Part shown: piece by piece, positions 218 through 53,080 of the stretch
How positions within the stretch are numbered: position 1 is the stretch's first letter
How the letters are laid out: each line of letters begins with the position of its first letter
From: Psammoneis japonica
Lineage: Eukaryota
Direction of reading: 5' to 3'
Assembly: GCA_008632985.1 (NCBI GenBank)
Contig: QPGO01000129.1
Span: forward strand, 186,001 to 239,427
Length of the DNA: 53,427 nt
Made by a program: the position numbers and the translations under genes
The notes under the pieces: model-generated
The model's input: the letters and a program-made list of their open reading frames with translations, nothing else
The model's database searches: none
Told to the model about the DNA's origin: nothing

Positions 218-247
218 TGAAGACATGTATATATATACATGTCTTCA
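218..247. repeat. Perfect 30-bp palindrome with (TA)5 core
   Basis: TGAAGACATG-TATATATATA-CATGTCTTCA equals its own reverse complement. Confidence 0.9.
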
Positions 248-823: not shown

Positions 824-3800
824 ATGGTTCTCACTCGTCAGCAACAAACCGATGGTTTCGAGCACGTGGTTGGAACCGTGCTTGCCCAAGGTGCTGGGAG
901 TCCTCTTCGTTTGGCTTTGGCCCAAGACGGCACGGACTCGCATCAGGAACTGTTCACGTTCATGCCGTCCCAAATCGACTCGCTTGAGTGCGACAACGGC
1001 ACTAATGCAATCCCTTTGCCCCGTGGTTATAAGAACATGTTAGCAGCACTGGTCAGTCTGTACATTGTCAAAGCACACAAAGGTCTTGACGTTGCCAACG
1101 ACTCCTCTTTGTTCACGCATGACGAGTTCCTTGCCTGCCGCCTCAGCCCCGACTGCATGTCTTCTGTGTCCATCGGCAGCTCACCCCTTGCACCTCCACA
1201 TGTCACCAACCCGACCAAGGCACGCGACCCGGTGCGGGACTTCAAGCGAGGCATCAAGCGTGATCCCACCGCTTTCACGGCTCTCAAATCCGACAAGCAG
1301 TGGCACACTTGGCACACCTCACTTGTGGCACAAGCCCGTGCCCAAGACGTCGAGTGCATTCTAGACTCGTCGTACAAACCGACCAGCCCCGAAGACAAAC
1401 TGCTCTTTGCTGAACAGCAAAAGCACATGTTCGCCGTCTTCGAACGCATCCTTCTCACCGACAAGGGCAAGGCTCTCATTCGCGAAAATGTGGGGTCTTC
1501 TGACGCACAGACCGTCTGCCGCTCCTTGTCTGAGTGCGCGCTTGCCTCCACCCGTGCATCTGTCGAGTCCTCCACCCTGCTCACGCACCTGACCACCGCT
1601 CGTCTTGGTGATGGCACTTGGAAAGGTCCGACCCACGGGTTCATCCTTCATTGGCAAGATCAGTTGCGCAAGTGCGAGGCACTCATCCCGGCCAGTGACC
1701 ACTTCTCTGAAGGACAGAAGCGCGTCATGCTCGAGAATGCCGTGCACCCTGTCGAGGAACTCCGTGCTGTCAAGAACCAAGCTGATCAGCATCGTGCGCA
1801 GAGTGGCAAGAGCCTCACATGCGATCAACACTGTGGCTTGCTCCTCTCCGCGGCAGCTCAGTGCGACAGCACGTTTCAACCCAAGACGACACCTCGAGCT
1901 CCCCGACGCGCCACACACGCACATGACGTCTGCTCCGAGGAACCGTCCGACGATGTGTTCTACGACATTGACAGCGACGTTGACGTCCTTCAGGCCAATG
2001 CTGCCCACACCCGTGGTCCCAGCCTCACCAGTGTCCAATGGAGACGTCTCCCTCCCGACCACCAACAGCTCTGGGATTCGTTGCCCGATTCCTCCAAGGC
2101 GATCATCCTTGAGCATTCTCGTCCACCTCCCCGCAACCCGCGAGCCAGTGACCACCATGAGTCTGTTACGGCCAACCTTCACGACCAACGCCTTGGGAGT
2201 GACGGTGATGTCAACTTGTCCAACACGACTCCTGCTGACTCTGGTGACTCCGCTCCACATGTGGACGCCACTTCGGACAATCCCATCCTGGCGCACCTCA
2301 CCAAGCGCAAGCCACTGCCACCCGGTGATCTGCAACGTCTGTTGTCTCCTAACCAAGCCCACAATGCCAGTCGACCGGGGCCATCCGCCGCTTCCTCTAC
2401 CCCGCCAGCTTCTGCAGATGACACAGAACTTAACGGCCGCACTCACCGCCGCGTTGACAACCACAATGTCATTCACTCTGCCTCTGCTCATCGCTCCACA
2501 TGCACTGGTGCTCCAGTCGATCGTGGGGCCAACGGCGGCATTGCTGGCGACGACGTTCGCGTCATTGCACGCACCTCTCGCCAAGTCGACGTTCAGGGCA
2601 TTGACGATCATCAATTGGTGGACATCCCCATTGTCACCGCTGGTGCCGTTGTTGAGACCCAGCGTGGTCCCGTCATCGCCATCCTCCATCAGTGCGCACA
2701 CACGGGAAAGGGCAAGACCATCCATTCCTGCGGCCAGCTCGAATGGTGCAAACAGGATGTCAACGATCGCTCTGTCAAGGTGCCCAACGGCTTGCAACGT
2801 ATTGCCACTCCTGATGGCTATGTCATCCCCATTGACATCAAGGCTGGCCTGCCTCATGTTGCCATGCGACCTTACACTGACGCCGAATGGGACACCCTGC
2901 CCCATGTCATCCTCACCGGTGATGACACATGGGACCCTTCCGTCCTCGATCACTCTGTCACTGACGACGACCAGTGGTGCGACGCGATCTCTGACCTGCA
3001 GGACGATCCCACTGCCAACCTGTTTGACGAATGCGGCAACTGCCGTCATCGTGTCGTTGTCAACGAGACCATCATGTCCGCTTCCTTGTCTGCCGATCAC
3101 GCGTCCGCCCTCGATGATCACCTCATTCCGAATGACGACGTGTTCTACGAGTGTCATCTGCATGCGATTGGCCCCCAGGGCGACGACGTTCCACCTCCGG
3201 AGCGCACTGTACAGCCCAAGGACCCCCCCTTCGAGTCTCTTCGGCCTCACTTTGGCTTCTTACCTGCCGATGCGGTCCATCGTACTTTTGACTGCACCAC
3301 GCAGTGCGCCCGCATGCCCGCCGGTGCACACCTTCGCAAGGCCTACAAATCACCCAACCCCGCCCTTGATGTGCACCGCCGCAACGAGCCCATCACCACT
3401 GACACCGTTTGTGCCGACACCCCGGCCGTCGACTCTGGTTGCACCAGCACCCAACTGTTTGTTGGCACCGAGTCTACCGTCACTGACGTCTGCGGCACTA
3501 AGACGGACAAAGAGTTTGTCAACACACTCGAGGATCAGATCCGTGAACGTGGTGCCCCATCCAAACTCATTAGCGACCGTGCTCAAGTTGAGATCAGCAA
3601 CAAAGTGCTCGGGATCCTACGCGCCCTCTTCATCTCTAGCTGGCAAAGTGAGCCTCACCAGCAACACCAAAACTTTGCCGAACATCGATGCCAGACCGTG
3701 AAGCGCATGGCGAACACTGTCATGGATCATTTTGGTTCGCCCGCCCACACATGGCTGCTGGCGCTCATGTGCGTGTGCTTCACACTCAACCATGCAGCGT

Positions 3801-6488
3801 CCCCACGTCTCCACTGGCGCACGCCCCTCGAGACTCTCACTGGCTCCACCCCGGACATCAGCCCGTTGCTTCGCTTTCATTGGTGGGAACCCGTGCACTT
3901 CCACCTCTTGTGACTCCGATTGGCCGTCCGAATCCCGTGAGTTGCGTGGACGCTTCGTTGGCATTGCTGAGCACGTCGGCCACCAGATGACCTTCAAGAT
4001 TCTATCTGAAGAGACTCAGAAGATCCTCTGCCGGTCCAACGTCCGCTCCGCTGCCCCCGATCCTGTCGTTCGAAACCTGCGTCTTGATCCTCCTGATGGG
4101 GAGCCACCTGAACCCATCATCAAATCTCGCCATGACGACAACCCCGTCGACTCTCCTGATGGGGAGATCAGGACACCCAAGATGCCAGTTTTCGATCCGC
4201 AAGACATCATTGGACGTGCCTTCCTCATGCAGCCACAAGAGGACGGACAACGCCACAGAGCTCGCATCGTCAAGGCCGTCGAAGACCACGAATGGAAAGT
4301 GAATGGCAATCCCGAGCTCACTAAGTTCGTCTGCTCTGTCAACAATGACGAATGCGAGGAAGTCCTTGCCTGCAATGACATCATGAATCACATTGAGCAA
4401 GAAGACGAAGATGCCACTGTTTGGAAATTTCGACGCATCGTGTCGCACGAAGGACCTCTGAAGCCTCACGACCCAACCTGGAAAGGCTCCAGCTACAACA
4501 TCATGCTTGAATGGGAAAGTGGGGAGATCACGTCCGAGCCTCTTGCCATCATCGCCAAGGACGACCCCGTCACCTGTGCCATCCATGCACGAGAGAACGG
4601 ACTCCTCGACACGGATGGCTGGAAGCGGTTCCGCACCATCGCGAGGCGCCAAAAGAAGCTGTTTCGCATGGCCAACCAAGCCAAGCTTCGCTCCTTCCGC
4701 ACTGCACCTCGCTACAAGCATGGACACGAAGTTCCCCGGAACTACAAACACGCCATGTCACTAGACGAACGCAACGGCAACCGCAAGTGGGGAGACGCAA
4801 CTAATCTCGAGATGGACCAACTCGACGAATACAAAGTCTTCCATGACTGCGGGCCCTTCAAGTCTTCCACTCCTCCTGCGGGACACAAGAAGATCCAGTG
4901 CACCCAGGACGACGTGAAACACGACGGTCGCCACAAGGCACGACTCGTAGCCGACGGGCACCTCACGGACGTGCCTGTTGACAGTGTCTGCTCCGGAGCA
5001 GTCTCCCTCCGTGGCCTTCGGCTGATGATTTTCCTGGCCGAACTCAACGAGTTGGAGACATGGGCCACCGACATTGGCAATGCCCACCTTGAAGCCACCA
5101 CCAAGGAGAAGCTTTACATTGTAGCTGGACCCGAGTTCGGCAAACTCGAAGGACACATCCTTGTCATCCACAAGGCACTGCATGGACTGCGCAGCTCCGG
5201 TCTCCGCTGGCACGAGCGCTTCGCCGACTGCCTGCGAGCTGAAGGCTTCTTCCCCTGCCGCGCCGAACCCGACATTTGGATGCGCAGGAACGGCGACCAC
5301 TGTGAATGCATTGCCGTTTGTGTGGATGACCTCGCCATTGCCATGAAGGACCCTCAATCTTTCGTCGACACTCTCACGGAAAATCACAAGTTCAAGCTCA
5401 AGGGCGGGACCCATTGAGTTCCATCTGGGTTGCGACTTTTCCCGGGAACCCGACGGAACCTTGTGCCTGTCTCCGCGCAAGTACATCGAGCGCATGGTCG
5501 ACAGCTGTGCCCGACTGTTTGGGGAGAAACCTGCCACCAACGCCCTGTCACCTCTAGAGAAGGGTGACCACCCCGAACTGGACACTTCCGAACTGCTGGG
5601 ACCCGATGGCATTCACAAGTTCCAGTCTCTTGTTGGTTCACTCCAATGGGCAGTGTCCCTTGGTCGAATTGACATTACCACGGCTGTCATGTCACTCTCT
5701 AGCTTCCGAGCTGCGCCCGTCAAGGCCACTTGGACCGTGCCAAACGCGTCTGTGGGTGCCTCTCCGAAATGCGACACGGTGCTCTCCACGTTCGCACGGA
5801 AGAGCCCGGCTGTTCGGATCTCCCTGCTCCGGCCTGTGAATGGATGCATTCCGTGTATGGTGAAGCAGAAGAGATGATCCTGAAGGACGCTCCACCGCCC
5901 CTTGGCAAGTTCGTCACTGCCACCCACTACGTCGATGCAAACTTGTGCCATTGCATGCTCACCGGACGCTCTGTCATGGGAATGCTCCACTTCCTCAACA
6001 AATTCCCGGCTGATTGGTTCTCTAAGAAACAAGCCACCGTGGAGACTGCGACCTGCGGGTCTGAATTTGTTGCCGCAAGGACTTGTGTTGAGCAGATTGT
6101 CGACCTGCGCATCACCCTGCGCCACCTTGGCGTCCCGATCCGTAACGTTAGTTACATGTTCGGTGACAACAAGTCGGTTGTAGACAGTGCCACCATCCCA
6201 CACTCCAAGTTACACAAGCGACACACCGCACTGTCGTTCCACCGTGTGCGTGAGGCAATTGCCTCTGGTTGCCTTGAGTTCCACTTCATCGAAGGCTCCC
6301 GCAACCCTGCTGACATTCTCAGCAAGCATTGCGGTTGCTCCCAAATCTGGGACCTTCTCCGCCCCCTCATGTTCTGGAACTTCATTCCATCCGAAGTCGA
6401 ATCTGTTTCTGTGGCTCCTCAAGCAAACTGGGGAGTGACAGGATTTGAACAGGATTTAGGTGCGCGCGAAGTGTCGTGCGCTGTTTAG
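824..6488 (+). mobile_element. Ty1/Copia (CoDi-type) LTR retrotransposon gag-pol, decayed
   Basis: Order gag (FKRGIKRD...)-protease-like (VDRGANGG)-integrase (TDTV/SDRAQ/NFAE)-RT (KARLVADG, DIGNA[H]L, KAL[H]GLRSSG, V[C]VDD)-RNase H (WFSKKQATVET, GDNKSV, NPADILSK). ATG at 824. Frameshifts near 3905, 5410 and 5718. Confidence 0.95.
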
Positions 6489-6701
6489 TTTGCCGTGCAC
6501 AGTTTTGTGTGCTTTAGTTCCGCGCGTTCACGCGCGATGTAGTTTGCTTTCGAGCCACAAGGCTCACAAGAATAACAACAGTAGCCCGATCATACCGACT
6601 TGCACGTCTTTCGGCTCCTGCAACGGTCTCTGAGCGGAGACTCATCTGCTGTTTAGACAGCAGCAAGGAGTTGTTGTTTGAATTCTTGCCATTTGCCTTC
6701 A
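6430..6701 (+). repeat. Polypurine tract followed by probable 3' LTR of the Copia element
   Basis: GGGGAG directly followed by TGACAGG at 6436, the usual PPT|TG junction. The right end (...TTCA near 6701) is a guess, and no matching 5' LTR is visible in the window. Confidence 0.55.
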
Positions 6702-6797
6702 TTTCCTGTCATCCAGCAAATTAGCAGGTGCCTGCACAGTCACCTGAGTGCAGAAAGTCAGCAAATTTACACAAATTTAGCAAGTTATTTTGTGCTG

Positions 6798-7991
6798 TCA
6801 CAGTCGCCTGAGAATGGTCTCTTCCTCTAGAGAAAGGGGGACTGAATTGTCATTCTTGCCCACTGCAGCACTCTTCAGGCAGAGAGACACGCAGAAGAAC
6901 TCGTCGTTTGAGTTTGTCCTGCTGGAGATGCAGCGGCACTTGGTGGGGTTAAAAATGATGACATCACCAAGCCAGAGTGCAACGGAGATGCCTTCGGTGG
7001 GGAAGCAGAAGTGCGCCACAATCCCGTCATTCATGGTGTGGCTGCCGGACGGAGGGACTCCCACCATGGTGACTGCTGACAGGAAGAAGTCCTGGTCCCG
7101 ATGGGCGTTGAGGAAGACATTGCACCCAGCCGCCAGAGAGGAGAAAATGCCATCTGACCGCACCAGGGATTTCCAGTTGTGAAACTTTTTGACACGAGCG
7201 ATGCCCTCAAGGATGGCACAGTCCACGCACTCATTGACAAGGTGCTCCATGCGTGAAAGAAGTCTGGTGAGGTGGTGAGTGTGTTGGTCGGCCATGCCAG
7301 GCTGCTTGCAAGAAATTCGAGCGTCTCTCGTGGCAGCCAGGCCAATCGTGGAATGCTTGCTCCTGTCCATCTCCATGAAGGTAACGCGTTGTTTGCTGCG
7401 CACGGTGGACTGGGCGGTGCAGCATTCTAGTGCTTTGAGCGCTCGGTGCTGAGCAACTAGTTCTGCTGGGTTGGGGGAGCTGAACACCACAGCAGAGCAC
7501 GGCAGCAGGGTGCAGGTGTTGTCGCAGCGGCAACCGTCCAAGCCAAAGAAAGGCTTCAGATCGAGCACAGGGTCACAGATGACCAGAGGAGCCAATTCGG
7601 CAAAGTCAATGTCAGCAAGACAACGTGGTGCAGGCTGAGTGTAGTCGCCGTTGCAAACTAGAGTGCGGTTGGCTACGCAGTGCATGGAGAGACTCTCAGT
7701 GGCGCACGGTGCAAGTGGAACGAGGCGAGCAATCTTGGATGTTTTCCTGCTGGCGCGGCTGCGGATTCGCCTGCGGCTGCGGCGGGCCTTGCGAAGTGGC
7801 GGTTGAGCCCTCAACACGTTCTCACACATCCTGGTGCGCATTGACGATGCGGTGTTCGCAGAGAACGTGTGTGCGAACTTGCCGGTGAATGTTCCGCTGC
7901 TTGACACTGTCACTGTCGTCTTGGCAGTGCCCAAAGCAGAGCTCTGTCGACAGGGACCGGCGGACTCCAGGGGAGTGGGGTCAAAACCCAA
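6798..7991 (-). pseudogene. TET/JBP-like 2-oxoglutarate/Fe(II) dioxygenase domain, mutated
   Basis: IFSSLAAG[C]NVFLNAHRDQDF (HxD at 7095-7103), FCFPTEGISVALxxGDVIIFNP, K[CR]C where YHC is expected, and CVSL[C]LK. Motif order and spacing match the TET/JBP double-stranded beta-helix core. Confidence 0.6.
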
Positions 7992-8093
7992 TCAAGAGAT
8001 GTGTCTGCTTTCCGTTGCCTCAAGAGCACCCAAAGCAAAACTCTGTTGACAGGGACCGGCGGACTCCAGGGGAGTGGGGTCAAAACCCAATCG
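7932..8093. repeat. Tandem duplication with 99-bp period and ~62-bp near-identical core
   Basis: CAAAGCA.A.CTCTGT.GACAGGGACCGGCGGACTCCAGGGGAGTGGGGTCAAAACCCAATC starts at 7932 and again at 8031. Confidence 0.9.
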
Positions 8094-8678
8094 CGAGAAG
8101 TGTTTGCTTGTTGTCAGGCTGCGAGCTGCACGTCCCAAACCCCCACACTGTCGAGACCGGCTGCAACTCGATCGCGACAAGTGCTTGTCGTTGGTGGGAT
8201 GACGCAGCGAGGCACGAGGCAGTTGCGACATGGTGTGTCTCAATTTGAAATGTGTTTCAAAGTGCAACGACGGAAGTGTTGTCGCGTTGTTTTTGTCTCC
8301 GCGGAGGGAGGATCATCCCACGGCAATCTCAGTGCGAGTTCTCGCGTGGAAGTGCATCACGTGCCATGCCAGCTTGTGCGTTTGAATTGCACGGATGTGC
8401 AAGTGCGGCAACGATGAGAAGCAGGCCGAGATTCAAAACAAATTTTATCGCCTGAAGGCGTCTTGTTGTTTCAACGCGTCTGCATGTCTGTTTAAAATGA
8501 CTTCATGCATCGATCCACACGCAGGTAGAGGCAGCACGCCGCGTTTGAAAATTTCGCGCGCATGGAGGGCGCGATGGTAATTTTGCACATTCTGCGCACG
8601 TCACAGTTTGGTTTGGAAACGCAACGTCTGGTCGAACCCGCTGCAAGCAAGGTTGATGTTGCCACAAGGTTGGATGCG

Positions 8679-9540
8679 ATGAACCATCATTGCAGAAGTG
8701 TCAGGGAGTTTCATCTTCAAACGGCTCCGGACTCCACGTTCCAGAGCAGGCGTGTCTCCGGAGACGGAAGCGGATCTTCGCACGGCGGCGAAGTTGGCTT
8801 CGCTTTGAGCAGCGAAGTGTTTTTGAACAAACGGCGTGAATCACACCTGCGATGCATCTGTCGACATGGGCAGGGGAGTTGCCGGACCCAGCATCGGGCT
8901 CAAGTTACTTCGTCGCCGTTGCACCGTGGTGAGCATCGAGGCCGACCACGATCGTCACCAAGAGGCTGCATGTTGGGCTCATCGTGCTGGCCTTCGCTCG
9001 AACGGCGGGTTGGAGTTAATCAACAAGTCATTCTTGGACGAGAGGCTGGCTCCTTTGTGGAAAAAGAAAGGACTCAAGGTGTTCTTCAACAACTGCAACT
9101 CCCGCATGGTCGACGACAAGAACACACAGCAGAAGGCAGAGGCGATGCTTTCGAAGTTGTGTCGTGCTGGGACCGTGGTGGTGGCGCTAGATCCGCTGTT
9201 CGCGTCGCACGCGGGAGAGTGGATGTGCGAGTCCTTCACGGCGGATCACCATGATGGCGACTTTTTGTGGCACAGCGGAGACGTGAAACATCTCGTCTTC
9301 CACAAGCACACCAAGAAAGAGGAGACTTCTCAGTCAACCAGCCAGCACATGCGACGTCCCACTCCGACACACTTGGAATGGAAGTGTTTGCCCGTCGCGA
9401 AACAGCCAATTTTACTTAAGAACTCAACTGAACTGTTTTTTCACTGTCACTGTGCCAGATGTCACACGCTAGTTGCTCTGCTCAATTCGCCATTGCTTCG
9501 CGGTGACAACAAGTTGTCGTCGGAGATGGTGCATGCTTGA
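8679..9540 (+). pseudogene. DOT1-like class I SAM-dependent methyltransferase, frameshifted
   Basis: S[H]GGEV (YGE-like), then after a frameshift near 8830: VDMGRGVA (motif I), VVSIEAD (motif II), ELINKSFLD, VFFNN (DOT1 FVNN signature) and GTVVVALDPLF (compare PGxRIVSLKP). Confidence 0.6.
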
Positions 9541-9631
9541 AGAGACAGAGGAAAGCTGAGTTGTGATCGACACTTGGTTTGCTGAACATTTGCAAATTTG
9601 CACTGCACCGGCAAAAAAAAAAAAAAACAAC

Positions 9632-10501
9632 TCAGTCTTCGTCGCTGTCCTGAAGCACCAAGTCGTCATCGACGTTCAGGTCAACTTCGCAGTTGAGCTT
9701 GACATCATCGTCGGCCTCTTCTCCAGCTTCTTCTGCCGGAGCTCCAATGAGACGACAGAGTTCCACAGGCAACGACCCCTCGTAGAAGCAACTGTGAAGC
9801 AAGTTCTTGTTTTGGGTGCACCAACCGATGTGAAACTGACCACCTTCCTTCTGAAGCTCGGCAAGCGCCGCCTCGTTGCTGATCACTTCGGACCAAACAG
9901 CATCCTTCATCCAGAAGAAGTCGTCTTCAATGAAGACCTCGGTGTTGTTCTCAGGGTCATCGTTGAGCTGCTTCGCAATGTGCTTCCCGAGGCCGCGCAC
10001 TTTAGCATCGGTTGGGACTTCTTCGAGGAAGATGAAGAAGAGATGCACGGCGCAGTTCTTGGCGTTCGTCTGCAACTCGCCTTCGTGAACCCACCTGCCA
10101 GCGCAAGGGTGGAATCTGACTTGAACCGCCCACGGAGTCCTGATGCGAAGGTCATCAAACAGAACCTTCTCCAACCAAACATTGGCCAAAAGGGGATTCT
10201 TGGCTTGGAGACGAAAAACAACGCCTTTCTTGCGGCCGACAGTGACGGTGGTGCAGCGCAGGAGGGCGTCCTCATCGGAATGGCTGCCATCATCAGAACC
10301 GGCGGATTTGGAAAGCTTGAACCCGTGCTTGGCAAGGCAGTCTTCCGGTTCAAGGTCGTCGTCGGTCAAGCCGTTGGTCTTGCGGGGCGGACTTAGTTTC
10401 TTCAACAGAGCATCAGAAAACTTTGTCTTTGCCTTCTTCTGTTTGGTTTCGGCGACTTTGGCTTTCGCAGCCGGGGAGGTCGTTGTGTTTCTTTTGCATG
10501 C
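9632..10501 (-). CDS. Unknown transposon-associated protein with Lys-rich N-terminus and acidic C-terminus
   Basis: Protein-like frame (MA[C]KRNTTTSPAAKAK...DDDLVLQDSDED) with the same TpA depletion as its neighbours. No family recognised. Confidence 0.45.
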   Translation of the reverse strand, partial: ACKRNTTTSPAAKAKVAETKQKKAKTKFSDALLKKLSPPRKTNGLTDDDLEPEDCLAKHGFKLSKSAGSDDGSHSDEDALLRCTTVTVGRKKGVVFRLQAKNPLLANVWLEKVLFDDLRIRTPWAVQVRFHPCAGRWVHEGELQTNAKNCAVHLFFIFLEEVPTDAKVRGLGKHIAKQLNDDPENNTEVFIEDDFFWMKDAVWSEVISNEAALAELQKEGGQFHIGWCTQNKNLLHSCFYEGSLPVELCRLIGAPAEEAGEEADDDVKLNCEVDLNVDDDLVLQDSDED

Positions 10502-11038
10502 CATTGAATCAGTTGGAGAGAAATTGTGGGAACAAAAAGTGCGATCGTCCAGAAGTGCCAAGAAAGACCCAGTGGAGCTGCGTGCGTCATGCCAAGGAGA
10601 ACTGGCAACGTCAGCAACTAGATCCAAACACGTCGAACTGCAACAAGGTGACCTTCCAGGTGTCAGCACTTGCAAGTGGTGCATGGATTCAATTTGAACA
10701 AAACAGATGCAAGGATCGGAGCACGCAAAGTTGCACTGAGTTTGCTGAAAATGCACAAAATCACATGCAGTTCCGTCCGTGCTTTGTGTGCATTTCAGCC
10801 ATTGCCGCCGCGCGGCCATCGCGCGCGAAATCTAGTCGCCAAACGGTCGACGCCATCGCTGTCACTGCTGTGCCGGCAGTTAGCTGAGGTGGGCCCATCA
10901 CCCATTTGGAGGATTCGCGCGCACTTTGGAAACACGAATGACATCAATCGCACCGTCATTGCCACATGACTGCCCCGCCACTCGTTGAAGCGTGATTCTA
11001 CGGAATTTGCGCAAAGCTGCGCCCGCCACCAAGATTGC

Positions 11039-11145
11039 CGAAACAACTTGAACAAGATCCGAATCTTGCCCCATGGAATGTTCAGAGCAGATGGTCGAAA
11101 CAACTTGAACAAGATCCAAATCTTGTCCCATGGGATGTTCAACAT
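11039..11145. repeat. 57-bp tandem duplication
   Basis: CGAAACAACTTGAACAAGATCC starts at 11039 and 11096. Confidence 0.85.
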
Positions 11146-11296
11146 CGACGAAACTAAGTGGGATGTCGTGTGTCTGGTGCGAAGAAGGACGTGGGAGGAA
11201 CGCACACGTCACTCTTCTGTCGAGGTGAAAGAGGCACACTATCGTCTCACTTTTTTGTGACAGAACCTTTGCGCAAAGGGAGACGAAAAGCATCCA

Positions 11297-11990
11297 ACTG
11301 CGGTGATTGGGCCACACCGATTGCAGTTCTCAGTTCTCACAGTGACCTGGCAATGCAGGTTGTGAGACAACGCACAAGCTCAGCTGCAGTGACTGGACGA
11401 CACCAGTCGCAGCTCTCACAGAGACCTGATCGCACAGGTTGTGAGAACATGACACAACGCTGTGGTGATTGGATGGCACCGACGCAGTTCGTCAAGCAAC
11501 CAATTCACTTGGCTGCGGTGACTGGACAACACCAGTCGCAGCTCTCACAGCAACCTGATTGCACAGGTTGTGAGTGAACAACACAGCGCTGCACCTCGTA
11601 ACGCAGGTTGTGAGATGACGCACAAGCTCAGCTGCAGTGACTGGACGACACCAGTCGCAGCTCTCACAGAGACCTGATCGCACAGGTTGTGAGAACACGA
11701 CACAACGCTGCGGTGATCGGGCAGCACCGACGCAGTTGGTCAAGCAACTGATTGACTCGGCTGCAGTGACTGGACAGCACCAGTCGCAGTGCTCACAGCG
11801 ACCTGATTGCACAGGTTGTGAGAAGATGACACAGCGCTGCGGTGAGCGGACAGCACCGACGCGGTTCGTTGATCAACTGGACAGAACCACTGCAGTGACT
11901 GGACGACACCAGTCGCAGTGCCACAGGTGGTGAGAAAACACACATCGCTGTGGTGATTGGACAGCACCGATTGCAGCTTCACGGTGATCG
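11297..11990 (+). repeat. ~5 copies of a 129-bp tandem repeat upstream of the Helitron Rep
   Basis: GC[A/G]GTGACTGGAC..CACCAGTCGCAG recurs at 11386, 11515, 11634, 11763 and 11892 (spacings 129, 119, 129, 129). Confidence 0.9.
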
Positions 11991-12063
11991 CACTGAAAAA
12001 ACAACTGTTTTTGCTGAGCAACTTCTTGAAATTTGTTGAGTTGGAGCACCAGCTCAAATTAAG

Positions 12064-15000
12064 ATGGACGAGGCCAACTCCCGTTTTTGCAACGCAATCA
12101 ACAGAAAGTTTGAGATGCTCCACCTGCATGGAGACGGAGAATTTAGACCACACGCATGTTCAGTCTGTGATGTTCTGCTGAAACCCAGAGAAGTTTGCTG
12201 CTTGCCGCTTGAAACATTGGAATCAGCAAGAAACTCACTCACCCCTTCAGACTGGAACAGCGTGTCTGATCGTCTCAAGTCCTGCCACACTGTAGAGCAT
12301 GAAGATGCTGATTGGATCAAAGACCCGCCACTTTCTCCCCGCGCCCAATGCGCAGTGCAGGAAGACAGACGACACGTTGATGGATTCACTTGCTGCAGCG
12401 AATGCCGAAGAAGCCTGAGAAGAGCCGTCATGCCAATGCATGCGATGGCGAACAACTGCTGTTTCTGCACCCCGCCGCGTGAACTGTTGTCTCTGACCAA
12501 AGCAGAGTTGGCAATGCTCACACCAGTGAAAACATGCGGGTGCTGCTTCAGTTGCCTTGGCGGCAAACAGAAGAAGCTTCAGGGAAGTCTGACATGCTGC
12601 AAAGTCAAGATGCAAAGCATCGTAAGAACTGTTGTGCACTTCGACGTGCTGAATTTGCATCAGAATGTGATTGCACTGATGACTGGAAAGATGACTCCGG
12701 AGCAAAGACAACTTGCACGTTCAAAGAACAGAATTAGGACGCACTGCATGCCAAGGGCGATGGAATGGCTGTTGCACCACAACCAAGAGTGGGTGCACCA
12801 ACAGACAAATCTAGACGAAGTCAGGTGCAATCTGCGGAATCCCGCACTTGTCGACAGCACCAGCGAAGAAGAAGGAGAAAATGCAAACATTGAGACCTCA
12901 GAGTCATTTCACATTTGCTTTCCTGATGGAACCATGTCTCCTGCGACCGGTGGTCAGCGCAACCTGGACTGCTTCAAAGATCTTGTGCACGAAGCCACTG
13001 CCAACGGATTTGATTTAGAGGCACAAGCACAGTTGTCCAAAGAATCTGCGAGTGATTTCAAAGGCAACAACTTCATTGACGCGTGTCTGCTGCAGTTTCC
13101 TTTTGGCAGAGGAGGAATCAATGAGACGAGAATGAAGAAAGACAGAAGTCTCACAGATGGCACCAACCTTGCACACTGTGCCGACCACTCAGCACGGATT
13201 TCCCAGCCTCACTTCCATGAGCAGCTCTTCGTGTTAACATGCCACAACTTGACAATGAAGCAAAGGATGCTGCAGAGCGCAGGGTGGAAAGTCAGGGACA
13301 AGAATCAGGCTGCACAGTTTGCAAACGAACTGACAGTGGACGATGTGGACAGAGCTGTTTGTGATCGCAACTTGGGCGAGAGAAGAGATTGTGGACTCGG
13401 GCACCACTTTTTGCATGCACTCGACGTTGCATCTGCGTCTCTGCCACACAGTGACGAAGCAGCAAAGAAAATGAGGAGAAACGCCAAAACTCACCAGCAT
13501 CATTTTGGTCAGGGTGGCATTTTCTTAACCGTCAGTCCGGACGATGCAAATTCGTTTCTTGTGCAACTGCACTCGGGTGTCATCCTGGACCCAAACGAAG
13601 ACGTGACACAACTGACGGACGAAATTCTTGCCAGCAGGGCCAAGCAACGCAATGAACTGCGTCTAAAGTTTCCCGGTCTAACAGCCTTTGCATTTGAGTG
13701 CTTGTTTGACATTGCAATGGAAGAGGCAGTGGGTCAGGATCTGAGTGCCAACCAACCAAGAGAAAACTTTAACTTCTGCATTGGCAGGCCAGCCACATTT
13801 TTAGCCGCAGTTGAGGAGCAGGGACGTCCAACAGTGCATGGACACATGCAGATCTGGTTTGCATCGATCAACAATGCAAGAGAGAAACTGCACTCGCCAA
13901 TGAGACAGATCCGACACGAAGGTGCTGAGTGCCTTGCCAACATGGTTCAGAAGATCTGCAGCACGGAGTTAATCTGCAGCGAGGACTTCAGCACTGACGC
14001 GTTGCGTGAAGCATTTGATCATGACTGCACAGTGCCAAAAATGCACCGCACCTCTCCAAAAGCAGTGGACGACCAACAGCTAAGAAACCTGAGGCATGAA
14101 GATGGCCAGCAGTCAAAGAACGGAATGTTTGCTTGTTGTCGTCACTGCACCAAGCACTGGACAAACGTCGAGTTTGTAGAAAGCTTTTTGCAGTCACGGC
14201 ACTGTGTGCCTGGCCTGACTCGCTGTTGAGACAACCATGCAAAGCGACTGAAAGCAATGTGTGTGCAATGCCAGCGAAGTGGTCCGCAAGGGACAACAGA
14301 GGCACACATGCCGGATGCAGCTTACAACCATCACATGCACGTTACGAAGTCGTGTTTTCCCAAATGCGCAGAGTTGCGTAAAATGCGTAAAAAAACCCCA
14401 CACGAGGAACTGGACACGCAGTCAAGGAAAAGGAAACGAGAGGAGCTCAAACTGGGTGACTGCCGTCACAGGCAACCAGCTGCTTTGTGTCCAAACAACT
14501 TGGCAAGGAATGCAGATGACACTCAGATAAAGTGGTTCAGCTGGGATGGAACTTTTGCGCATCGGTGCGTGAAGGAAGTTGTTCCAAAGAGGAGAAAGCA
14601 CGATGCTTTTCAAAACGTGTCGTGCCCTGCAACAAGCAGATCAAAGCTGACATGCAACACAAACATTGCTTTGTTGATGCCTGGACCGTCTGCTCAATGC
14701 ACGACCAAGTGCATCCCAAAAGATGCCCAGAAAGATGACACTGCATCGTACGACGAAGTGCTTCGAACTGCGAACAGGATGGCGACGGAATTGTGGAAAC
14801 ACACATCTGATGCATCGGAAGCAATCAGACGTCTCACATGGGGTGCTCACTCGCATGACAAGACGAACGTCATTGGACCACCACTTGCGTCTTGCACAAC
14901 AAGGAACGGAAGCCGTTTCATCGAATCTCATTTGACCGCATGGTGCCCCTTGAAAGACATTGTCAGCACACTAGAAAGAGACGAAGTGTCTGTGACTGCA

Positions 15001-17795
15001 GCCCATTTTGGCGATGCACTGTTCTTCCAATGCCAGGCCTTGCACCACCTGTGTCGTCCAACAGCACTGGAGAATCTCAGTCCGTTTGCGTTTTTTAGTG
15101 AGTGCGAAGTTCTTCACAACACAAGGAAAAACGAACACGGCATGATGATGTTCGACAACAGAGCGCACAGGCACCCGTCTCACAATTCAACAAAGAATGA
15201 GTTTCTTCAAGGTGTCAGACAGTGACAGCAACCGCGATTGTCAAAAGCACTTCAGTGTGATTTTCCTGATGCAGCCAAGTTTGGCAGTTGCCTCATGGAT
15301 CCGCAGCAACCAACAACACCAGACAAAGAATTGTGCTGCAAGTTGGCATTGGCCTTGTTCGCGCCTTACAGAACAATGACGGAACTCAAACCAATGACCC
15401 ACGCACACCTGCGTGAATTCCAACTCTCCGCAGTGGCCGGTGTCATTGCAGAGGAAATCTTGAACTTCTTGCAGAACCTGCAGGATGCCAAGTCCAACTG
15501 CCTTCGTCTCAAAAGTGCATCTGACGATCTGCAAAGAAAGACGGAGCAATTTAGACCTGCTGACGTTGCGTTTGACTGTTGCAAAAGTGACGAGGAAGAA
15601 GGTCTTTCAGGCGCCGTTCAGGGTCAACCACTGGATGCACTCTTGGAAGAAATGGCAGAGCAGCCAGAAGACGATGACATTGGGTTGAGCGACCAAGCAG
15701 TCATTCCTGCGCATTTGAGCGGCAAACGTGCAAGACAGAAAGGTCCACACATGGGTGGTTGCAAATGCTTGGCAGACGTGCACACTGACCCACCAAACGA
15801 GGAAAGCCAGGTCAATGAACGACAACTTTTTGAGAATCTAGAGGGTGGCGATGACACCGACGAGGAAGACCAGAATGAAGGAGTGCAACAACACATCCAC
15901 AGCAGACCACTGTCAAGAGACAACATTGTTCGAGTGACACTGACTAGAACGCAAAGAACAAGAAGGTCGTTTGAGGACATGACAGGTTTGGAAGAACACG
16001 TCGATGTGCGTCAAGCAAACGGATCTGCAGCAAGCATCGTAGACTGGGCTGGGAAAGCAAGACTGGACAGGCAACAGCAGCGTGCCTTTGAAATTCTAGC
16101 AGGAACCTTTGTGCTCACTTGCTGCCAAGACACTCTTCAAGACGAGACGTCACACAATGGACTCAACAGGAGAAACAGCAGACACGAGTTTGCAACAAAC
16201 CTTCGCCGATTGAAGAAACTCGTGGAAGTGCAAAGACGCAGAACGTTGCAACTTGTGTGTTTTTTACATGGTGCAGGTGGAAGTGGCAAATCAACCACAG
16301 TGGACCTCGTCGTGGAATGCGGAAGAGAGCATTGCTCGCTTGTTGAGCAGCCGTTCACAACAAGCACAATCAGAGTGACTGCACTGACCGGAGTGGCTGC
16401 GACCATTCTCAAAGGGGACACAATCCACCGAGTTGCATGCCTCATGAGAAGAAAGCAAATGACCGAAGAGCAAATTGAAGCATGGTCAGACACGAGACTT
16501 TTGGTGGCAGACGAGATTTCTTTTGCAAGCAAGAGAGAACTAGAAAAACTCCATGAGAATTTGACAGCATTGAAGAGCGAATTGAGCAAGCCACACGGTG
16601 GTGTCAACATTGTTTTCGCAGGTGACCTCAGGCAACTAGAACCAGTCGGAAAAGGAGTGAAACCACTGCACAAAGATGCATGTCCCGAGTTTCACGAGTG
16701 GATCAACTGCCACATGGAACTTCGTGGTGCACACAGGTTTAAAGACGATCCATCATGGGGAAAACTGCTCAAGAGATTCCACACTGGTGAGATCACAGTT
16801 GATGACACAGAGTGCATCAACGAACGAGCAGCTCAGAACGAAGATGATCTGCCCAGTGACCTCCGCTGTGCCACGTGCGCAAATGAGGACAGAGATGCAA
16901 TTGACACTGGCCATTCGAAAAAAGAGCAGAAACACTGCATGGAAGAGATGGAGACGTCCTTGACTCAATGTTGATTTTCAGTGACGACTTGCAGGTGCAG
17001 AATGGCACGAGACTCTGCCAACCATTTCCGGTTTGCAACAGCTTCTGGAACAACTGTGGTGAAGGAGACATTGTCATGCAATCAGGAAGAATGGATCCAG
17101 TCTTACGAATTTACAGAAGATGCAGAGTCATGACACCTTTCAACGAAAATGCAGCAAATGGTCAAGCAAATGGAACGCAAGCCACTGTTGACAAGGTCGT
17201 TCTCAAACCAGGACAGGAACCAAGACTGGTGACTTTAGACAACAACATTGGCATTCCTGCTGTGCTTGCCAGTCAGGTAGACCACGTTGTGTTGGAACAC
17301 TGCAACAAAAGCATCGACCCCGCGAAGTTTTTAGTTGAGCCAAAAACAAATGCTTTCAGGGCTTGCATCGCCAAGCCCAGCCTAATTTTAGAAGAAGGCG
17401 ATGAACAAAGGCACACTTTCCAACTGAAGGCAACCCAGCTGCCGTTTGTCATCAACAATGCCGCTGCAGGGCACAAACTGCAAGGGAGTGGAGTCCCGCA
17501 GTTGTCTGTGCACTCTTGGAGCTACACTCAGAATTGGGTGCATGTTGTGCTCTCCAGAGCAAAGACCAGAGAAGGGCTGTTCATGCGAAAGCCACCAAGC
17601 AAGGACCTGCGAAAATGCAAGGTCCCAGAAGGCTGCAAAGCCTTGACAAGACTCATGAAGGAGAGAAGCGCCACGCATTTTTCTCAGCAACAGTGCGCAG
17701 AAATGTCAATGCAGTGCGCAAACATTGGATTAGGATGCTCAACCACTGTGCAACTGTTTGGCGACCCCAACCGTAAAAATGCAGAAATTTCGTAA
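12064..17795 (+). mobile_element. Helitron Rep/helicase (RepHel), decayed
   Basis: HUH Rep motifs FLTVSPDD, VEEQGRPTVHGHMQIW and Q[C]TTK[C]IPK (YxxKY). PIF1 helicase motifs HGAGGSGKST, VADEISF, FAGDLRQLEPV, HRFKDD, ANGTQ, HKLQG and VVLSR. Split into four ORF pieces by stops and frameshifts. Confidence 0.93.
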
Positions 17796-17809
17796 AGTGA
17801 AAATGTCGA

Positions 17810-18271
17810 ATGGATTTTAACCAACAAACCAAGAAACGCGAACGCAGCCGTCACAGAAAACGCAGCAATGGAGAAAACATGGATTTGCAACAACAAACAA
17901 AGAAGGCAGACGAGCCAAAGAAAACTGGTGAGGACAAGAAAAAGGTGCAGACATGTGCGGAACTTCTTCAGTCATTGATGAACAAGGAAGACGAAGAGGA
18001 GATCACCTTGGAAGAAGCAAGAGCGGCGTTTGACCTTGCCTCGGGAAATTTTGATGTCACTTCTGCACTTGTGCAAGACAACATGACAGCGGACAGTCAT
18101 CATGTGGAAACAATGGTCACGCCCAAGGATGATTCAACCATGGAGGAGCTAAAGGCAGCATGTGCAGCGGCGATTCCACAGCGGTCGGGGAGATTTTTCA
18201 CCGAGGAGGAGATGGCGGAGCAGGAGAAGGAGCAAGCAAAGTCCCTTCAGAAGAAGCATGGCCAGAAATGA
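17810..18271 (+). CDS. Small charged protein with a UBA-like motif
   Basis: ITLEEARAAFDLASGNFDVTSALV resembles UBA helices 2-3. It lies directly downstream of RepHel. Confidence 0.4.
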   Translation: MDFNQQTKKRERSRHRKRSNGENMDLQQQTKKADEPKKTGEDKKKVQTCAELLQSLMNKEDEEEITLEEARAAFDLASGNFDVTSALVQDNMTADSHHVETMVTPKDDSTMEELKAACAAAIPQRSGRFFTEEEMAEQEKEQAKSLQKKHGQK

Positions 18272-18899
18272 TGGAATTGAGCAAATTGCAAATGACCATT
18301 TGGCAAAGACAACCGCATCAATGCGCAAAATGCACACACATGGACTTTCGCTCAAGCCGCCGCGGATTGAGTGTGGCCACAAATGAGGACCAGCTGTCTG
18401 GCAAAGAAACTGCAACAATGCGTAAATTTCGCACATTTCCACACTCACTCAATCCAACGCAGCTTGCCTTGGACAACATCAACATGCACAACTGGACAAC
18501 ATCAATGTGCACAGCCTCATGAAACCTCACAGAAGACAGAACAGTCAGAAGCAAAACAACCAGCACCGCGCACTGACGCATGTTGGTCATGTCACGTGGG
18601 TCGCGCAAAAGTGCGCACCGAAATGACCATTGTGTGTTGCAATCAATTCGAACGCCCGGCGCAAAATGCAGCAAAATGATTGGTGCAGGCAATCATCATG
18701 GCTCCATTTTCTGACAGTGGCGAGGGCAGCAATCCAAAATCTTTCGGTTTCAGACTTCGATCTAGAGAGTTCCACCTAAAAGAGGAGGAACCAATTGATG
18801 CTGAACAGGTTTTTTGTGCTGGTTTGCTCTGCAAAAGTCTAAAATTGGAGGCAAGGCCATGGAGCTCTGCAGATTTGAGCACAAAACAAAGAATTTTGA

Positions 18900-21800
18900 A
18901 TGTCAAGTCCTGAGTGTCTTTGCAAAGAGGGCTTTGCCGGCATGGAAATGCAATCATTTCACACAGCTGAGCACTTCTTGACAGATTTCAACAGGCTTGC
19001 AGCTTGCAACCAGGGTGGGGCATTGCTGCTTGGCTGAAGGTCTGAACTCTGTGGCAGCGCAGGATGTCTCTGGCACAGGAAGATCCTGGGAGGAAAACGC
19101 CAATGCAAAGAGCTTGGTGTTTGCCTTTTTGTGCTGATCAGGAGTTCTGCAAGAAGCAAGACAGACCTTGCCTTTGAGGCTCTTAAAGTTGTGGCTGAAG
19201 CTCCTGCTTTAAACCCCAGTGGGGGAGCCAGAAATGCTGCTTTGCAAAGCAACAGCAGCCAAGCCAGCATTGTGTGAAAAAAAATTTTTGGAGAAAAGCA
19301 CTTGATTTTGGAAATGGGAATGTTCCCATCATTTTTCACACCGCTGTTTTGCCAGTCAACTTGCTGCTCAAACTGTGCATTTTGCATGTGGGGCTGTGCT
19401 TTTAATTTTCTGTTGTCAATCAATTTGCCCAGCACTGCACAAAACAAACATGCCTCCTGTGGGAATGAATGAGGGGGACCAACCAAAATCAAAACCTGCA
19501 CTGCCAGACATTTTGACAAGAAACGTTGAGAATGTCATCCAGAAGCAGCAGAGATGCACTGAGCATGAGCTTGAATTTTTTGCACCTGTGCTTTGAAATT
19601 TTTCTGTGAAATGCTGGTGTTCAGAGTTGGGCATCATGCATGTTTTGCTTGAGGAAAGAAAACAACTCAGCCAGCCAGCTTCAACACCTGTGCATCAGGA
19701 CATTTCACAGCTGGTGCACAATGCTGCCTTCAACAAAAACCATGACAAGATGCAAGATGACAACAATGTTTTTTCCAACATGTTTTGCAAGTGTGTGGAT
19801 GCCTCACAAAACCCCAAAACAACTTGTGATCCAATCAGGTGGACAATGAAAACAAAAGCAAAGTTTGCTTGCATGCTGAAGAAGTTGCTTTCTTTTGTTT
19901 GTGTGAAAGTGCAAAACAGTGTTGGCAAAAACTTCTGGCAATGTCATGTTGCAAAACAGCAACACGCTGCAGTCTGCTCACAACAACGCACACTTTTCAA
20001 CATGCTCCCTCTCAACAAATGAGGCACTCACTCAAAATCTGGCACAAACCCTCCTGACAATGGTCGCAGACTGTGTGCACAGTTGTTGGCATCACTCCCA
20101 TGTGGGGGGTGCACCCAGCTGCAGCTGCACATGGAACCACAGTGTGTGCTCTCTCCACGTCACATGCTGAATGGCTGCATTTGCCGCCGGCTGGCACAAG
20201 TCATGTTGAGCAGGCTGTGTTTGTCAAATGTGCCGCTTGTCAACCAATGATTTTGAGGGTCAGTTGTTTCCTCCTGCATCACCAAAATTCTGGCTGATCA
20301 ACCTTGCTGCCACCCAGCAAATGTCATGATGCAAAAACGACTGTGTGAAGAGAAACTCGTCACTCTGCCACGTTCCTCTAAGATGCAGAGACCCTCTCAC
20401 ATCACATGTGCAGCATGCATGCAGACAAAAGGTTGTTTTTGTCACGCCCTTTGTGACATTCAAAGGCTGCAACACGTCGCCGTGATGCACCAACTCTTGT
20501 TGGCAGCTGCATGTTGCACTCCTCCCCATGTGTCACGCGTCCATGCGGCTCTTTGCTGATGTGTGCTGACACTGCACGGTTTTGGTGGAACAGTGTGGGC
20601 ACGTGCGAAGGAACATGCAGTTCTGCACAGAGTTTTTGCGCGTTGGACAGTGATCAACGTTGCTGCAGACAACTCCCACTCAGGGTTTCGAACCCCTGGC
20701 CTCCTGCCTGATGGTTGCGATGAACCACTCCGCCATGAATTCATGATGCAGCATGCATGCAGACAAAAGGCCATTTTTGTCACGCCCTTTGTGACATTTA
20801 AAGGCTGTGCTGAACCATGCTTGCCTGACATCAGCTGGTCACCACCGTGCTGGCAGCAGTTTTCTCATTGGCAACAAATGGGTGGTGCACGTCAAGCTGC
20901 AAACAAGTGCCAATTTTGGCACAGTTTTCATTCATCAGAGTGAGCTCAAACTGGAGCGGCTGCAAAAAATCCGGGTGGTGCATGACTTTGCAAGGACGGT
21001 TCTCCAAATTGTGCGCAACAACTTTTTGCACAATCCATCAGATGATCAGCCGCAGCCCAAAGCTTCCACTGAAACAAGCAATGCCCCCTTCTGGAGCAGG
21101 CAAAAAGAGGGCACAAGAGGGGCACAGATGTGCATGGTGCACTTTGCAACAAGCACACATGGGTCATGCTCTCAATCCCCAGCCATCATGCCAACAAGCG
21201 AGCCAAGACAACATGCTTTGATCTGCACGCTGTGAAGTGCTCACATTGAGAGCCAAGACAAGCTTTGAGCAATGCTTCCAATTTGAGCACAGAGGAGCTT
21301 GATGTGTGCGTGCGCGAAGCAACAAGCACACTGCACAGCTCGCAGCAGATTGTTTGAGAGAGCAAAAGCAAAGCGCACCTGCTCAACCAGAAACAGCTCT
21401 GCAGTTTTTGTCTTGACAGCGATTTTGCAAGCAACTGTCTTTGCACACTCAACAATGCTGAGCTTTGTTTGCAACGGGGGGCAAGAACTTGCGGCTTTGT
21501 TGCTCGGCTTGATTTTGAGACCTGTGCTCCAATGACAAGCGTGGCTTCCTCTGCTTGAATGCTGCCCAGATGACCGCACACTGTGCAGAGCAGACCACTG
21601 GAATGTGGGCATTTTGATGCTGTTCCAGAGCAGCACAGCTGACAGCCATGCATGCTGTCTGTGCACTCTCTTCCTGAGCACTGGTCTGTGCCATGCTCCG
21701 CAACGAGATGCTGTGCTCAGCCAAGTCATGTGCCACAAGCTCGTGTGTGACAGTCATGATCACCAGCTGCACAGTTCTGTGGAAATTGTGCACACAGCAA

Positions 21801-22150
21801 GAGCCATGCGCCACAGCTCTTGTCCAAAGTGCAGGGCAGCAAGCAATTTTGTGAGCTTGCTCGGGGTCTTTTTTCTTGTTCTTTTTGCTCGCCCCCCCCC
21901 CCCCCCCCACATGAAGAAGGCCAGCAGAAAATGGCGCAGGAAGCTTGGGGCAGCAGCTTCACAGCACCACTCTTTCTGCTGCACCCAGTTTGCTCCAAGT
22001 CACTTGCTTGGCACTTGTCTGACTCTCTGAGTCTGTCCATCCCGCCAAACAGAGTCGCTGACACCTGCCTGCCTGCTGCACCGGTGTGACCTCTGCGTCT
22101 GACACACCTTTTTTCTGTTCGCTTGTCTTTGTCATTCAATCACATCACAC
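18900..22150. mobile_element. Highly degenerate repeat-derived DNA (TpA- and partly CpG-depleted)
   Basis: Extreme TG/CA richness, very few TA, no recognisable protein, internal direct repeat at 20411 and 20749. Confidence 0.55.
20674..20737 (-). other. tRNA-derived Pol III promoter (SINE head or tRNA pseudogene)
   Basis: Minus strand reads TGGCGGAGTGG (A box, 20725-20735) and GGTTCGAAACC (B box, 20684-20694) with D- and T-arm-like pairing. The anticodon arm looks truncated. Confidence 0.55.
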
Positions 22151-22589
22151 ACGACTTGACTACTCCCTCTGTGCTGTCAACAAGTTGAACCCCCGGATGG
22201 GTAAAATTTCCGCCTCCAGATGGTGCCACAGTGTTTGCTACTTTGTATTTGCTGCGCACCGCCATTCGCGAACCTGTCACCGGGTGCTATTTTTAAGCAC
22301 CCCTGCAACATGAATGTGGTCAACGAGTTCTCCGGAAAATAAGCGAACCCTCCCCTCGCTCACAACTCACAACACAGAATTGTTTCATTACTGTTGAAGT
22401 GATCAGCAGTAGTTTTTCTTTGATCATCCTTTGCAGTTCGTAAGTTGCTTGCTGTTGAAAATGTTGACTGCGTTTGCTTCTCTATCAGAAACTCAGGAAT
22501 GTACGAATTGTGTTATTTCTGATAAAAGCTCGCCAGAACGATCTCACTTCTGCTTTCTTATTGGTTGTTGGCCAGAACTGACCTTTGTG

Positions 22590-49730: not shown

Positions 49731-49786
49731 TCATCAAAACAAGCAATGTTTTGCAGTGGTGTGACTGCACTCTCATCTTGATCAAC

Positions 49787-53075: not shown

Positions 53076-53080
53076 GCGGG

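Follow-up and report, generated by a model that had tools for sequence, protein, structure and literature searches.

A dead, multi-copy Helitron of Psammoneis japonica that probably carries a TET/JBP-fold oxidase gene among its cargo

Can a rolling-circle transposon carry, besides its own transposase gene, enzymes that would rewrite epigenetic marks? The question is raised by a block of about 12 kb in Psammoneis japonica, situated at ~6.7-18.8 kb of a stretch of 53,427 nucleotides (assembly GCA_008632985.1, contig QPGO01000129.1, positions 186,001 to 239,427 of the forward strand). This whole stretch is called the window, and its own numbering is used throughout. In the original prediction, the block was read as a candidate Helitron with five open reading frames (ORFs): a TET/JBP-like gene on the minus strand divergent from a DOT1-like gene on the plus strand, an ORF of no assigned kind on the minus strand, and, on the plus strand, a Rep-helicase (RepHel) gene followed by a UBA-like ORF. 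All the ORFs were found again at these places, including the divergent pair. What each of them is, and whether they belong to one element, is examined below. We conclude that the block is probably a dead copy of a multi-copy, autonomous Helitron with cargo genes in its 5′ half, among them an oxidase which, by analogy, would have an anti-silencing role.

RepHel, the gene that identifies the element, is located on the plus strand at 12094-17795, within a long reading frame spanning 12040-17795. Its Pfam domains are DUF6570, Helitron_like_N, which corresponds to the HUH Rep (5e-10), PIF1 (6.7e-15) and AAA_30 (2e-11), the PIF1-type SF1B helicase being fused at the C-terminal side. Over 12094-17705 the gene is colinear with five relatives from public metagenomes, of about 1850-1930 amino acids (aa), with 33-45% identity in the long segment. 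The HxH (HUH) motif of Rep is kept: in an alignment with 6 relatives, EEQGRPTVHGHMQIW falls on their HxH. These matches confirm the identity given to the gene at first sight. The window copy contains three lesions. Translated searches (tblastn with P0001 and others) follow RepHel in frame 1 up to 16911, then in frame 3 up to 17705, with a one-base frameshift at about 16911-16913; nine contigs have an extra C behind 16910. The two other lesions are in-frame TGA stops, at 14227-14229 and 15223-15225. The second of these aligns with a conserved Arg, and is therefore probably a CGA>TGA change. The catalytic Tyr pair of Rep is lost as well: where the relatives have GPxxxYxxKY, the window has ...C..KC., both Tyr being replaced by Cys. 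This replacement is decay of the window copy (TAY>TGY) and was not counted against its membership of the family. RepHel is thus one intron-less, true Helitron transposase gene. Absence of introns had been claimed for the whole block; the end-to-end alignment with relatives of ~1900 aa establishes it for RepHel, and the statement is kept for this gene only.

The first cargo gene is the minus-strand ORF at 6798-7991. A phmmer/HMMER scan of 1.84 billion representatives produced 632 relatives at E≤0.001 (best 6e-61), of which the named ones are diatom proteins (Seminavis, Fragilaria) together with a few bacterial-labelled metagenome bins. A word-based homologue search yielded none at E≤0.001, and a PDB sequence search no useful match. 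Pfam Tet_JBP (PF12851) was not found at E≤0.01 in the window ORF or in any of 20 relatives, and sub-threshold matches to it were present in 9 of 60 family members, the best with an E of 0.0023. The fold was therefore predicted with AlphaFold2 from 60 sequences, which gave a model with a predicted local distance difference test (pLDDT) of 92.2 and a predicted template modelling score (pTM) of 0.90. The top ranks in Foldseek were CcTet, CMD1, TET2 and NgTET1. In a second structural comparison the best 16 entries were all TET/JBP enzymes, and the next one was ALKBH3 (Z 11.5). Scores were Z 16.6-16.8 for TET2 (249-254 residues, root-mean-square deviation 3.7-4.3), 14.0-14.8 for CMD1, 13.8-14.1 for NgTET1 and 12.6-13.6 for CcTet. 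An independent search of 48,161 chains again placed TET2, CMD1, NgTET1 and CcTet in the top four positions, followed by ALKBH1 (Z 11.4).

The metal site agrees with this placement. The family has iron ligands of the HxD...H type: in the 60 sequences H203 never varies, and D205 and H259 are kept in 90% or more. The Arg expected to bind 2-oxoglutarate (2OG) after the second His was not located; the consensus reads ...HCxSSR..., and a nearly invariant K279 lies downstream of this His. In the window copy H259 is Arg, a position occupied by His in 11 of the 11 other aligned relatives, and three conserved Tyr of the family are His or Cys. Because its second iron-binding His is an Arg, the window copy is inactive. 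As had been proposed, and on the evidence of the model, we accept the gene as TET/JBP-like, that is, as a 2OG/Fe(II) dioxygenase whose predicted fold is nearer to TET2, CMD1, NgTET1 and CcTet than to all other solved folds. The assignment concerns the fold and the metal site, and the substrate is not readable from the fold.

Copies of the block were then looked for in contigs from one DNA run of the same organism, using the summed contig depth of 31-letter words (31-mers). These contigs are short, and their summed depth should not be read as a number of copies. Over 18770-20432, the flank contig of this run matches the window in all but 2 of 1663 letters. Summed depth ranged from 2032 to 5882 in all 21 bins covering 6835-18741, and from 61 to 77 in the single-copy flank, which puts the block at ~50-80 times the single-copy level. 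The dominant collapsed contigs were alike in depth, with 1069 for the minus-strand ORF that follows the methyltransferase-like gene (ORF3, over 9672-9964) and 1024 and 1326 for RepHel. Two other runs, X2 and X3, contain next to none of the block. The block is most likely a member of a family of tens of copies, and the evidence for copies of the whole block is good but indirect.

At the right end of the block, position 18770 is the first of the unique contig and lies 29 before the end, as expected for 31-mers, and the CpG count drops from 15 in 18549-18798 to 1 in 18799-19048, forming a cliff at 18798/18799. Since the two observations agree, the right end was placed at 18798/18799. An imperfect short hairpin read from the sequence at 18769-18791, on the plus strand, ends 7 nt before this 3′ end (...CAATTGA|T), and the fold centroid keeps its stem. 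At the left side, a very-high-copy repeat stops at 6711. This is the end of a Copia-like element (3702-6711, plus strand; Pfam RVT_2, E 1e-18; depth 71,000-258,000), which lies outside the unit. Position 6712 begins with TC after an A, and this A|TC is compatible with a Helitron end, but it stands precisely at the end of the Copia-like repeat. The next stretch, 6712-6797, keeps four TpA. To the left of the Copia-like part, positions 1-250 are normal host sequence, so that the element has no continuation on that side. A search for inverted terminal repeats gave none, including asymmetric ones between the 3′ end and either 6500-7000 or 10800-12100. The unit would thus extend on the plus strand over 6712-18798, with its left end somewhere within 6712 to ~6797.

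All parts of the block have suffered the same damage. The observed/expected ratio (o/e) of TpA is 0.05-0.23 in all repeat stretches of the window (1593-22400, 37032-43300, 45643-53427), against 0.51-0.64 in the host-gene stretches, and TpG and CpA are raised to 1.3-1.9 in the repeats. Within the block, TpA o/e is 0.13 in 6712-11000, 0.05 in 11000-12040, 0.13 in RepHel and 0.08 in the tail; measured per kb it lies between 0.02 and 0.24, so that erosion is near complete. Tyrosine represents 0-0.68% of residues in all five ORFs of the block, compared to 1.6-3.5% in host genes, a consequence of the near-complete removal of TpA by a TpA>TpG/CpA mutator. The similar mutation load noted in the original prediction is thereby recovered across the parts. 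RepHel has 359 columns that are conserved in 15 or more of the 16 relatives. The window departs from them at 46, ten times by Tyr>Cys or Tyr>His; 17 of the changes can be read without ambiguity as A>G or T>C, and 15 of these fall at TpA. CpG is depleted in repeats (o/e 0.35-0.92) but not in host genes; within the block, its o/e is ~0.9-1.0 in the cargo half, hereafter the module, and 0.67 in RepHel. That CpG decay alone would account for the TG/CA excess was rejected, since in the repeats TpA o/e (0.05-0.21) is far below CpG o/e and Tyr codons have suffered most.

We concluded that the TpA mutator is real and has destroyed the window copy. Its action explains the similar mutation load, the fact that both RepHel stops are TGA, and the long false ORFs of the repeats: loss of TpA removes TAA and TAG stops, so that long ORFs become cheap and dead genes can look open. 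Just to the right of the element, over 18799-22400, CpG o/e is 0.08-0.4 and TpA o/e 0.02-0.08. By depth, 18770-19875 is single-copy, and 19876-21000 is high-copy again (8,900-60,000). As the first of these segments is eroded although single-copy, erosion is not confined to multi-copy DNA.

Linkage between TET-like genes and RepHel was observed repeatedly outside Psammoneis. Metagenome contigs from JGI were scanned with a 12-row TET-like alignment, and 80 of the 209 confirmed loci were examined; for the neighbouring genes, 67 of 128 long ORFs, taken from loci of at least 6 kb, were scanned. Of the 80 loci, 11 had a RepHel in their available flank; among the 31 loci with a flank of 4 kb or more on one side, the number was 10. 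The 11 RepHel-linked loci form 7 sequence clusters and display four arrangements. RepHel lies upstream and divergent, as in the window, in L010/L012/L013, which are 99% alike and have a spacer of ~3.4 kb. It is upstream on the same strand in L005, downstream on the same strand in L001, L067/L068, L076 and L077, and downstream and convergent in L060/L062. In a quick tree, the window TET-like gene pairs with P0093 (support 99), then with the RepHel-linked L001; RepHel-linked and Plavaka-linked TET-like genes are interleaved in it, and a label test was without power, 69 rows being unlabelled. Elsewhere, an ORF of 2098 aa (L079:3-6296), in which a PIF1 helicase domain is combined with a GIY-YIG nuclease domain, adjoins a TET-like gene, and many of the TET-bearing loci are CpG-poor, with a median o/e of 0.745.

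A separate group of loci, L027, L034, L035, L037 and L038, shares a same-strand gene order around the TET-like gene, with flanking ORFs of ~1400, 513, 388 and 1407 aa. In L027, the sole scanned locus of the group, the flanking ORFs have no Pfam match. This gene order may belong to another large mobile element or to a virus.

Do the module and RepHel form a single element? We treat the block as one unit because depth, TpA erosion and Tyr loss are equal across its parts, and because no transposable element (TE) domains or terminal inverted repeats (TIRs) lie between them. The earlier remark that no other TE is visible between the genes holds: neither TE-type Pfam domains nor convincing inverted repeats were found between the parts of the block. 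That all the parts would move together is what these observations suggest, but a number of others speak against it. The even depth over the whole block fits the expectation that the genes co-occur in multiple copies, but no contig in the DNA run bridges module and RepHel in a second copy. Common ends were also anticipated; a right terminus could be placed, but the left terminus was not found, and neither was a canonical 5′-TC...CTRR-3′ pair. The signal at the 3′ hairpin is weak, the 91-nt stretch that contains it being not more stable than shuffles (z −0.47). Among the 12 metagenome loci whose flank reaches 8 kb or more on one side, no more than 2 have a RepHel; other TET-like genes adjoin Plavaka or DDE transposases or ordinary genes. 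None of the 80 related loci contained the methyltransferase-like gene, ORF3 or the small ORF. Finally, GC content at third codon positions (GC3) is 0.61-0.67 in the cargo ORFs and 0.655 in the reverse transcriptase of the Copia-like element, as against 0.49-0.54 in RepHel and 0.48-0.49 in host genes, and the gap between module and RepHel fits a separate origin of the module.

These points lead to the alternative that survives best, which we hold to be improbable yet worth serious attention: the block would be a composite, in which the module, from 6.7 to 11 or 12 kb, is another repeat or a transposon fragment placed beside a Helitron whose 5′ end is at ~11-12 kb. Both GC and GC3 step down at ~11-12 kb, and CpG o/e changes between the two halves, as given above. 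Tandem repeats at 11032-11969, upstream of RepHel (57 bp x1.9, and units of 248, 129 and 119 bp), could mark a subterminal region, and the missing 5′ terminus would be explained. TET-like genes, moreover, also travel with other elements: Plavaka (KDZ-type) transposase genes stand beside them in L014:158-3592 and L045:2558-5329, on non-fungal-looking contigs, and a DDE_Tnp_4 gene in L064. Against a composite, depth is equal in both halves, including for the dominant collapsed contigs, and TpA erosion is the same in module and RepHel. The module itself lacks TIRs and encodes no transposase, and the divergent TET-RepHel layout with its ~3.4-kb spacer recurs in a distant family (L010/L012/L013). 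We therefore retain the reading of a single Helitron with its cargo.

The second cargo gene is divergent from the oxidase gene, the two being separated by a region in which a 99-bp tandem repeat (x1.8) occupies 7930-8109. A single relative was found for it, P0243, with 53% identity (E 4e-55). Compared with P0243, the plus-strand gene runs over 8679-8828 and resumes at 8836 in another frame, to end at 9540, five codons being missing. The gene is broken in the window copy by an 8-nt gap near 8829-8835; other copies in the DNA run have 8 extra letters behind 8832, and their frame is restored. Its identification as DOT1-like came out weaker than proposed. Neither P0243 nor the window fragment matched any Pfam family at E≤10, DOT1 (PF08123) included, PDB sequence searches with both gave no DOT1L match, and no relatives of P0243 were found in viral contigs. 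A two-sequence profile matched weakly, and only to O-methyltransferase motifs I-II (E 0.09). An AlphaFold2 model from a 3-row alignment reached a pLDDT of 40, too low for fold comparison. On the other side, with the language-model features of the ESM Atlas, 16 of 30 matches of P0243 were in the DOT1 set (top score 0.96, 201-202 shared features), and the DOT1-domain clusters concerned are those of haptophytes, diatoms and giant viruses. A D-x-G-x-G motif for S-adenosylmethionine (SAM) and an FFNN stretch presumably resemble motifs of DOT1. From its sequence, the gene is a small SAM-methyltransferase-like gene, for which DOT1-like is a lead and not a finding.

Two ORFs complete the block. ORF3, on the minus strand at 9632-10831, is convergent with the methyltransferase-like gene and has 399 codons, the likely start being a Met at ~10510. 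None of 300 dinucleotide shuffles reached its full length, and 11 of 300 did so when it was counted from the first Met (292 codons). ORF3 had no Pfam, PHROG, PDB or ESM Atlas match; it is probably a gene. Between the convergent ends of the two genes lies a weak inverted repeat of 31 nt, 74% complementary (9534-9564 / 9627-9657), which could be a shared terminator or chance. The ORF of 156 codons at 17801-18271, on the plus strand, had been called UBA-like, a label for which no support was obtained: it had no Pfam match at E≤10 and no PHROG match, its sole PDB sequence match was a chance-level one to YusO (E 0.48), and its length was reached by 84 of 300 shuffles. It is not distinguishable from chance and may be nothing.

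If the block is a single Helitron, an active copy would be mobilised by the ~1900-aa RepHel, and would carry the oxidase, the methyltransferase and ORF3 as accessory genes in its 5′ half, with the oxidase gene transcribed away from RepHel. By analogy with the TET-bearing DNA transposons of fungi (PMC12730594), the oxidase would most likely act on modified bases, for instance 5-methylcytosine, in the element's own DNA, removing or converting methyl marks, and so allow an escape from methylation-based silencing. The methyltransferase, of class I and maybe DOT1-like, might add an anti-silencing mark that opposes silent chromatin; yeast Dot1 has a role in disrupting silencing. Anti-silencing appears on these analogies to be the likeliest function of the cargo. 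The window copy is dead: TpA>TpG/CpA hypermutation, with a milder CpG decay, has removed nearly all Tyr codons, among them those of the Rep catalytic Tyr pair and the three oxidase Tyr. It also has the iron-ligand His>Arg, two TGA, the frameshift and the 8-nt deletion. A more ambitious version, which we regard as doubtful, makes of the cassette a counter-defence: oxidase and DOT1-like enzyme would strip or overwrite host marks, and active copies would escape both silencing and TpA hypermutation. Such a module, if real, would be the first anti-mutator encoded by a transposon, and would help to understand how the TpA mutator is targeted.

Another possibility is that the block is not mobile, and corresponds to a host gene cluster (oxidase, methyltransferase, ORF3) with an adjacent Helitron, the whole being amplified by segmental duplication. 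In its favour, the termini are unproven and the accessory genes have no TE-specific domains. We nevertheless consider it very unlikely, given a depth that rises sharply at the edges to ~50-80 times the single copy, the fall of CpG at the right end, a TpA erosion that the block has in common with other repeats but not with the host genes of the window, and the linkage of TET-like genes to transposases in other genomes.

Least likely of all is that the oxidase is a JBP-like thymine hydroxylase, and that oxidation of thymine at TpA into 5-hydroxymethyluracil (5hmU) and further forms, rather than adenine deamination, drives the mutator, the copies serving as its reservoir. Oxidised thymine (5hmU and further forms) mispairs with G, the repeats have lost nearly all TpA, and the RepHel transitions fall mainly at TpA. 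There is a precedent in dinoflagellates, whose TET/JBP homologues make 5hmU, enriched on transposons, and for which earlier work on a TA/TC preference is cited in the sections of the study considered here (PMC11572971). In addition, the corresponding sections of a preprint on a TpA mutator name deaminase candidates only, and no TET/JBP (bioRxiv 10.64898/2026.01.13.699255). This hypothesis is countered by the 80 TET-bearing loci from other organisms, none of which is TpA-poor (o/e 0.45-0.82, median 0.655), by the difficulty of explaining that a transposon keeps a gene that destroys it, and by the closest solved folds being 5-methylcytosine oxidases, with the reserve already made on reading a substrate from a fold.

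The surroundings of the Helitron are those of eukaryotic nuclear DNA, the right half of the window carrying Gpi16, cyclin, glutamate synthase and sulfotransferase genes. For the Copia-like neighbour, neither a 5′ long terminal repeat matching 6440-6711 nor a target-site duplication was found in the window, and a Pfam scan of 181-3913 and 5703-6488 gave no match. Three overlapping ORFs of 632-1068 codons without Pfam match, at 707-3913 (plus strand), 1361-3259 (minus strand) and 1593-3701 (plus strand), probably reflect nothing more than the loss of TAA/TAG stops in this Copia-like element. A tandem array of 23/45 bp (GTTGTTTCAAGGAAAAC...) occupies 53082-53427, reaching the window end.

What does a Helitron of this type bring? 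Transposons with enzymes that rewrite their own epigenetic state occur in plants, oomycetes and fungi. With the present block, the theme reaches a genome of algal type and a large family of TET/JBP fold, with 632 relatives, that Pfam misses; a possible histone-type methyltransferase is added to the cargo. Its many differently eroded copies are a natural substrate for studying how the mutator is aimed and whether transposon genes resist it. On the practical side, repeats in TpA-eroded genomes should be expected to be full of long false ORFs, among which dead genes may appear open.

The mutator has a counterpart in the chlorarachniophyte Bigelowiella natans, in which TpA>TpG/CpA hypermutation of foreign DNA was reported in 2026 and an adenosine deaminase proposed (bioRxiv 10.64898/2026.01.13.699255). 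In the parts of that preprint compared here, the signature is the same, with TpA loss and CpA/TpG gain confined to repeats or foreign DNA. Its subject is integrated viruses and TpA-poor coding sequences, and its main text names no Helitron or TET/JBP; unlike these viruses, the eroded DNA of the window is a Helitron with a TET-like gene, in which erosion is near complete (o/e 0.02-0.24 per kb).

With respect to the solved enzymes, human TET2, Chlamydomonas CMD1, Naegleria NgTET1 and Coprinopsis CcTet, the predicted likeness extends over 207-254 residues (Z 12.4-16.8) and includes the HxD...H triad. The window family differs from them by an identity of only 9-13% and by the nearly invariant K279 after the second His, and the window copy by the Arg that replaces this His. 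As to DOT1/DOT1L, the H3K79 (histone H3 lysine 79) methyltransferases, and the small DOT1-domain proteins of algae and giant viruses, the likeness consists in the ESM Atlas cluster placement of P0243; the window-type protein has only ~245-290 aa, and no Pfam DOT1 or DOT1L sequence match. No report of a DOT1 gene in a Helitron was found in the part of the literature on Helitrons and DOT1 that was covered, and titles and abstracts on diatoms, JBP and transposable elements contained nothing relevant.

The closest known system is fungal. DNA transposons of fungi, including the Helitron1 and Helitron2 families, encode TET/JBP proteins for which anti-silencing was proposed, as stated in the sections of PMC12730594 used here. 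An epigenetic toolkit on a rolling-circle element is thus less unusual than had been claimed, although the papers found describe TET/JBP-bearing Helitrons for fungi only. The principle is known from fungi, and the new features here are the lineage of the host, an oxidase family that escapes Pfam and a methyltransferase-like gene in the cargo. In both cases an autonomous Helitron has a separate TET/JBP dioxygenase gene (PMC12730594, same sections). In both, the gene also appears to pass between transposon lineages, RepHel- and Plavaka-linked genes being interleaved in the tree made here; the KDZ-TET association of fungi is mirrored by the Plavaka and TET-like pairs of L014 and L045. The Psammoneis element differs from the fungal ones in that the named relatives of its oxidase are diatom proteins, of a family missed by Pfam Tet_JBP, in the addition of a methyltransferase-like gene and ORF3, and in the fate of the window copy, which was destroyed by a TpA mutator and not by repeat-induced point mutation.

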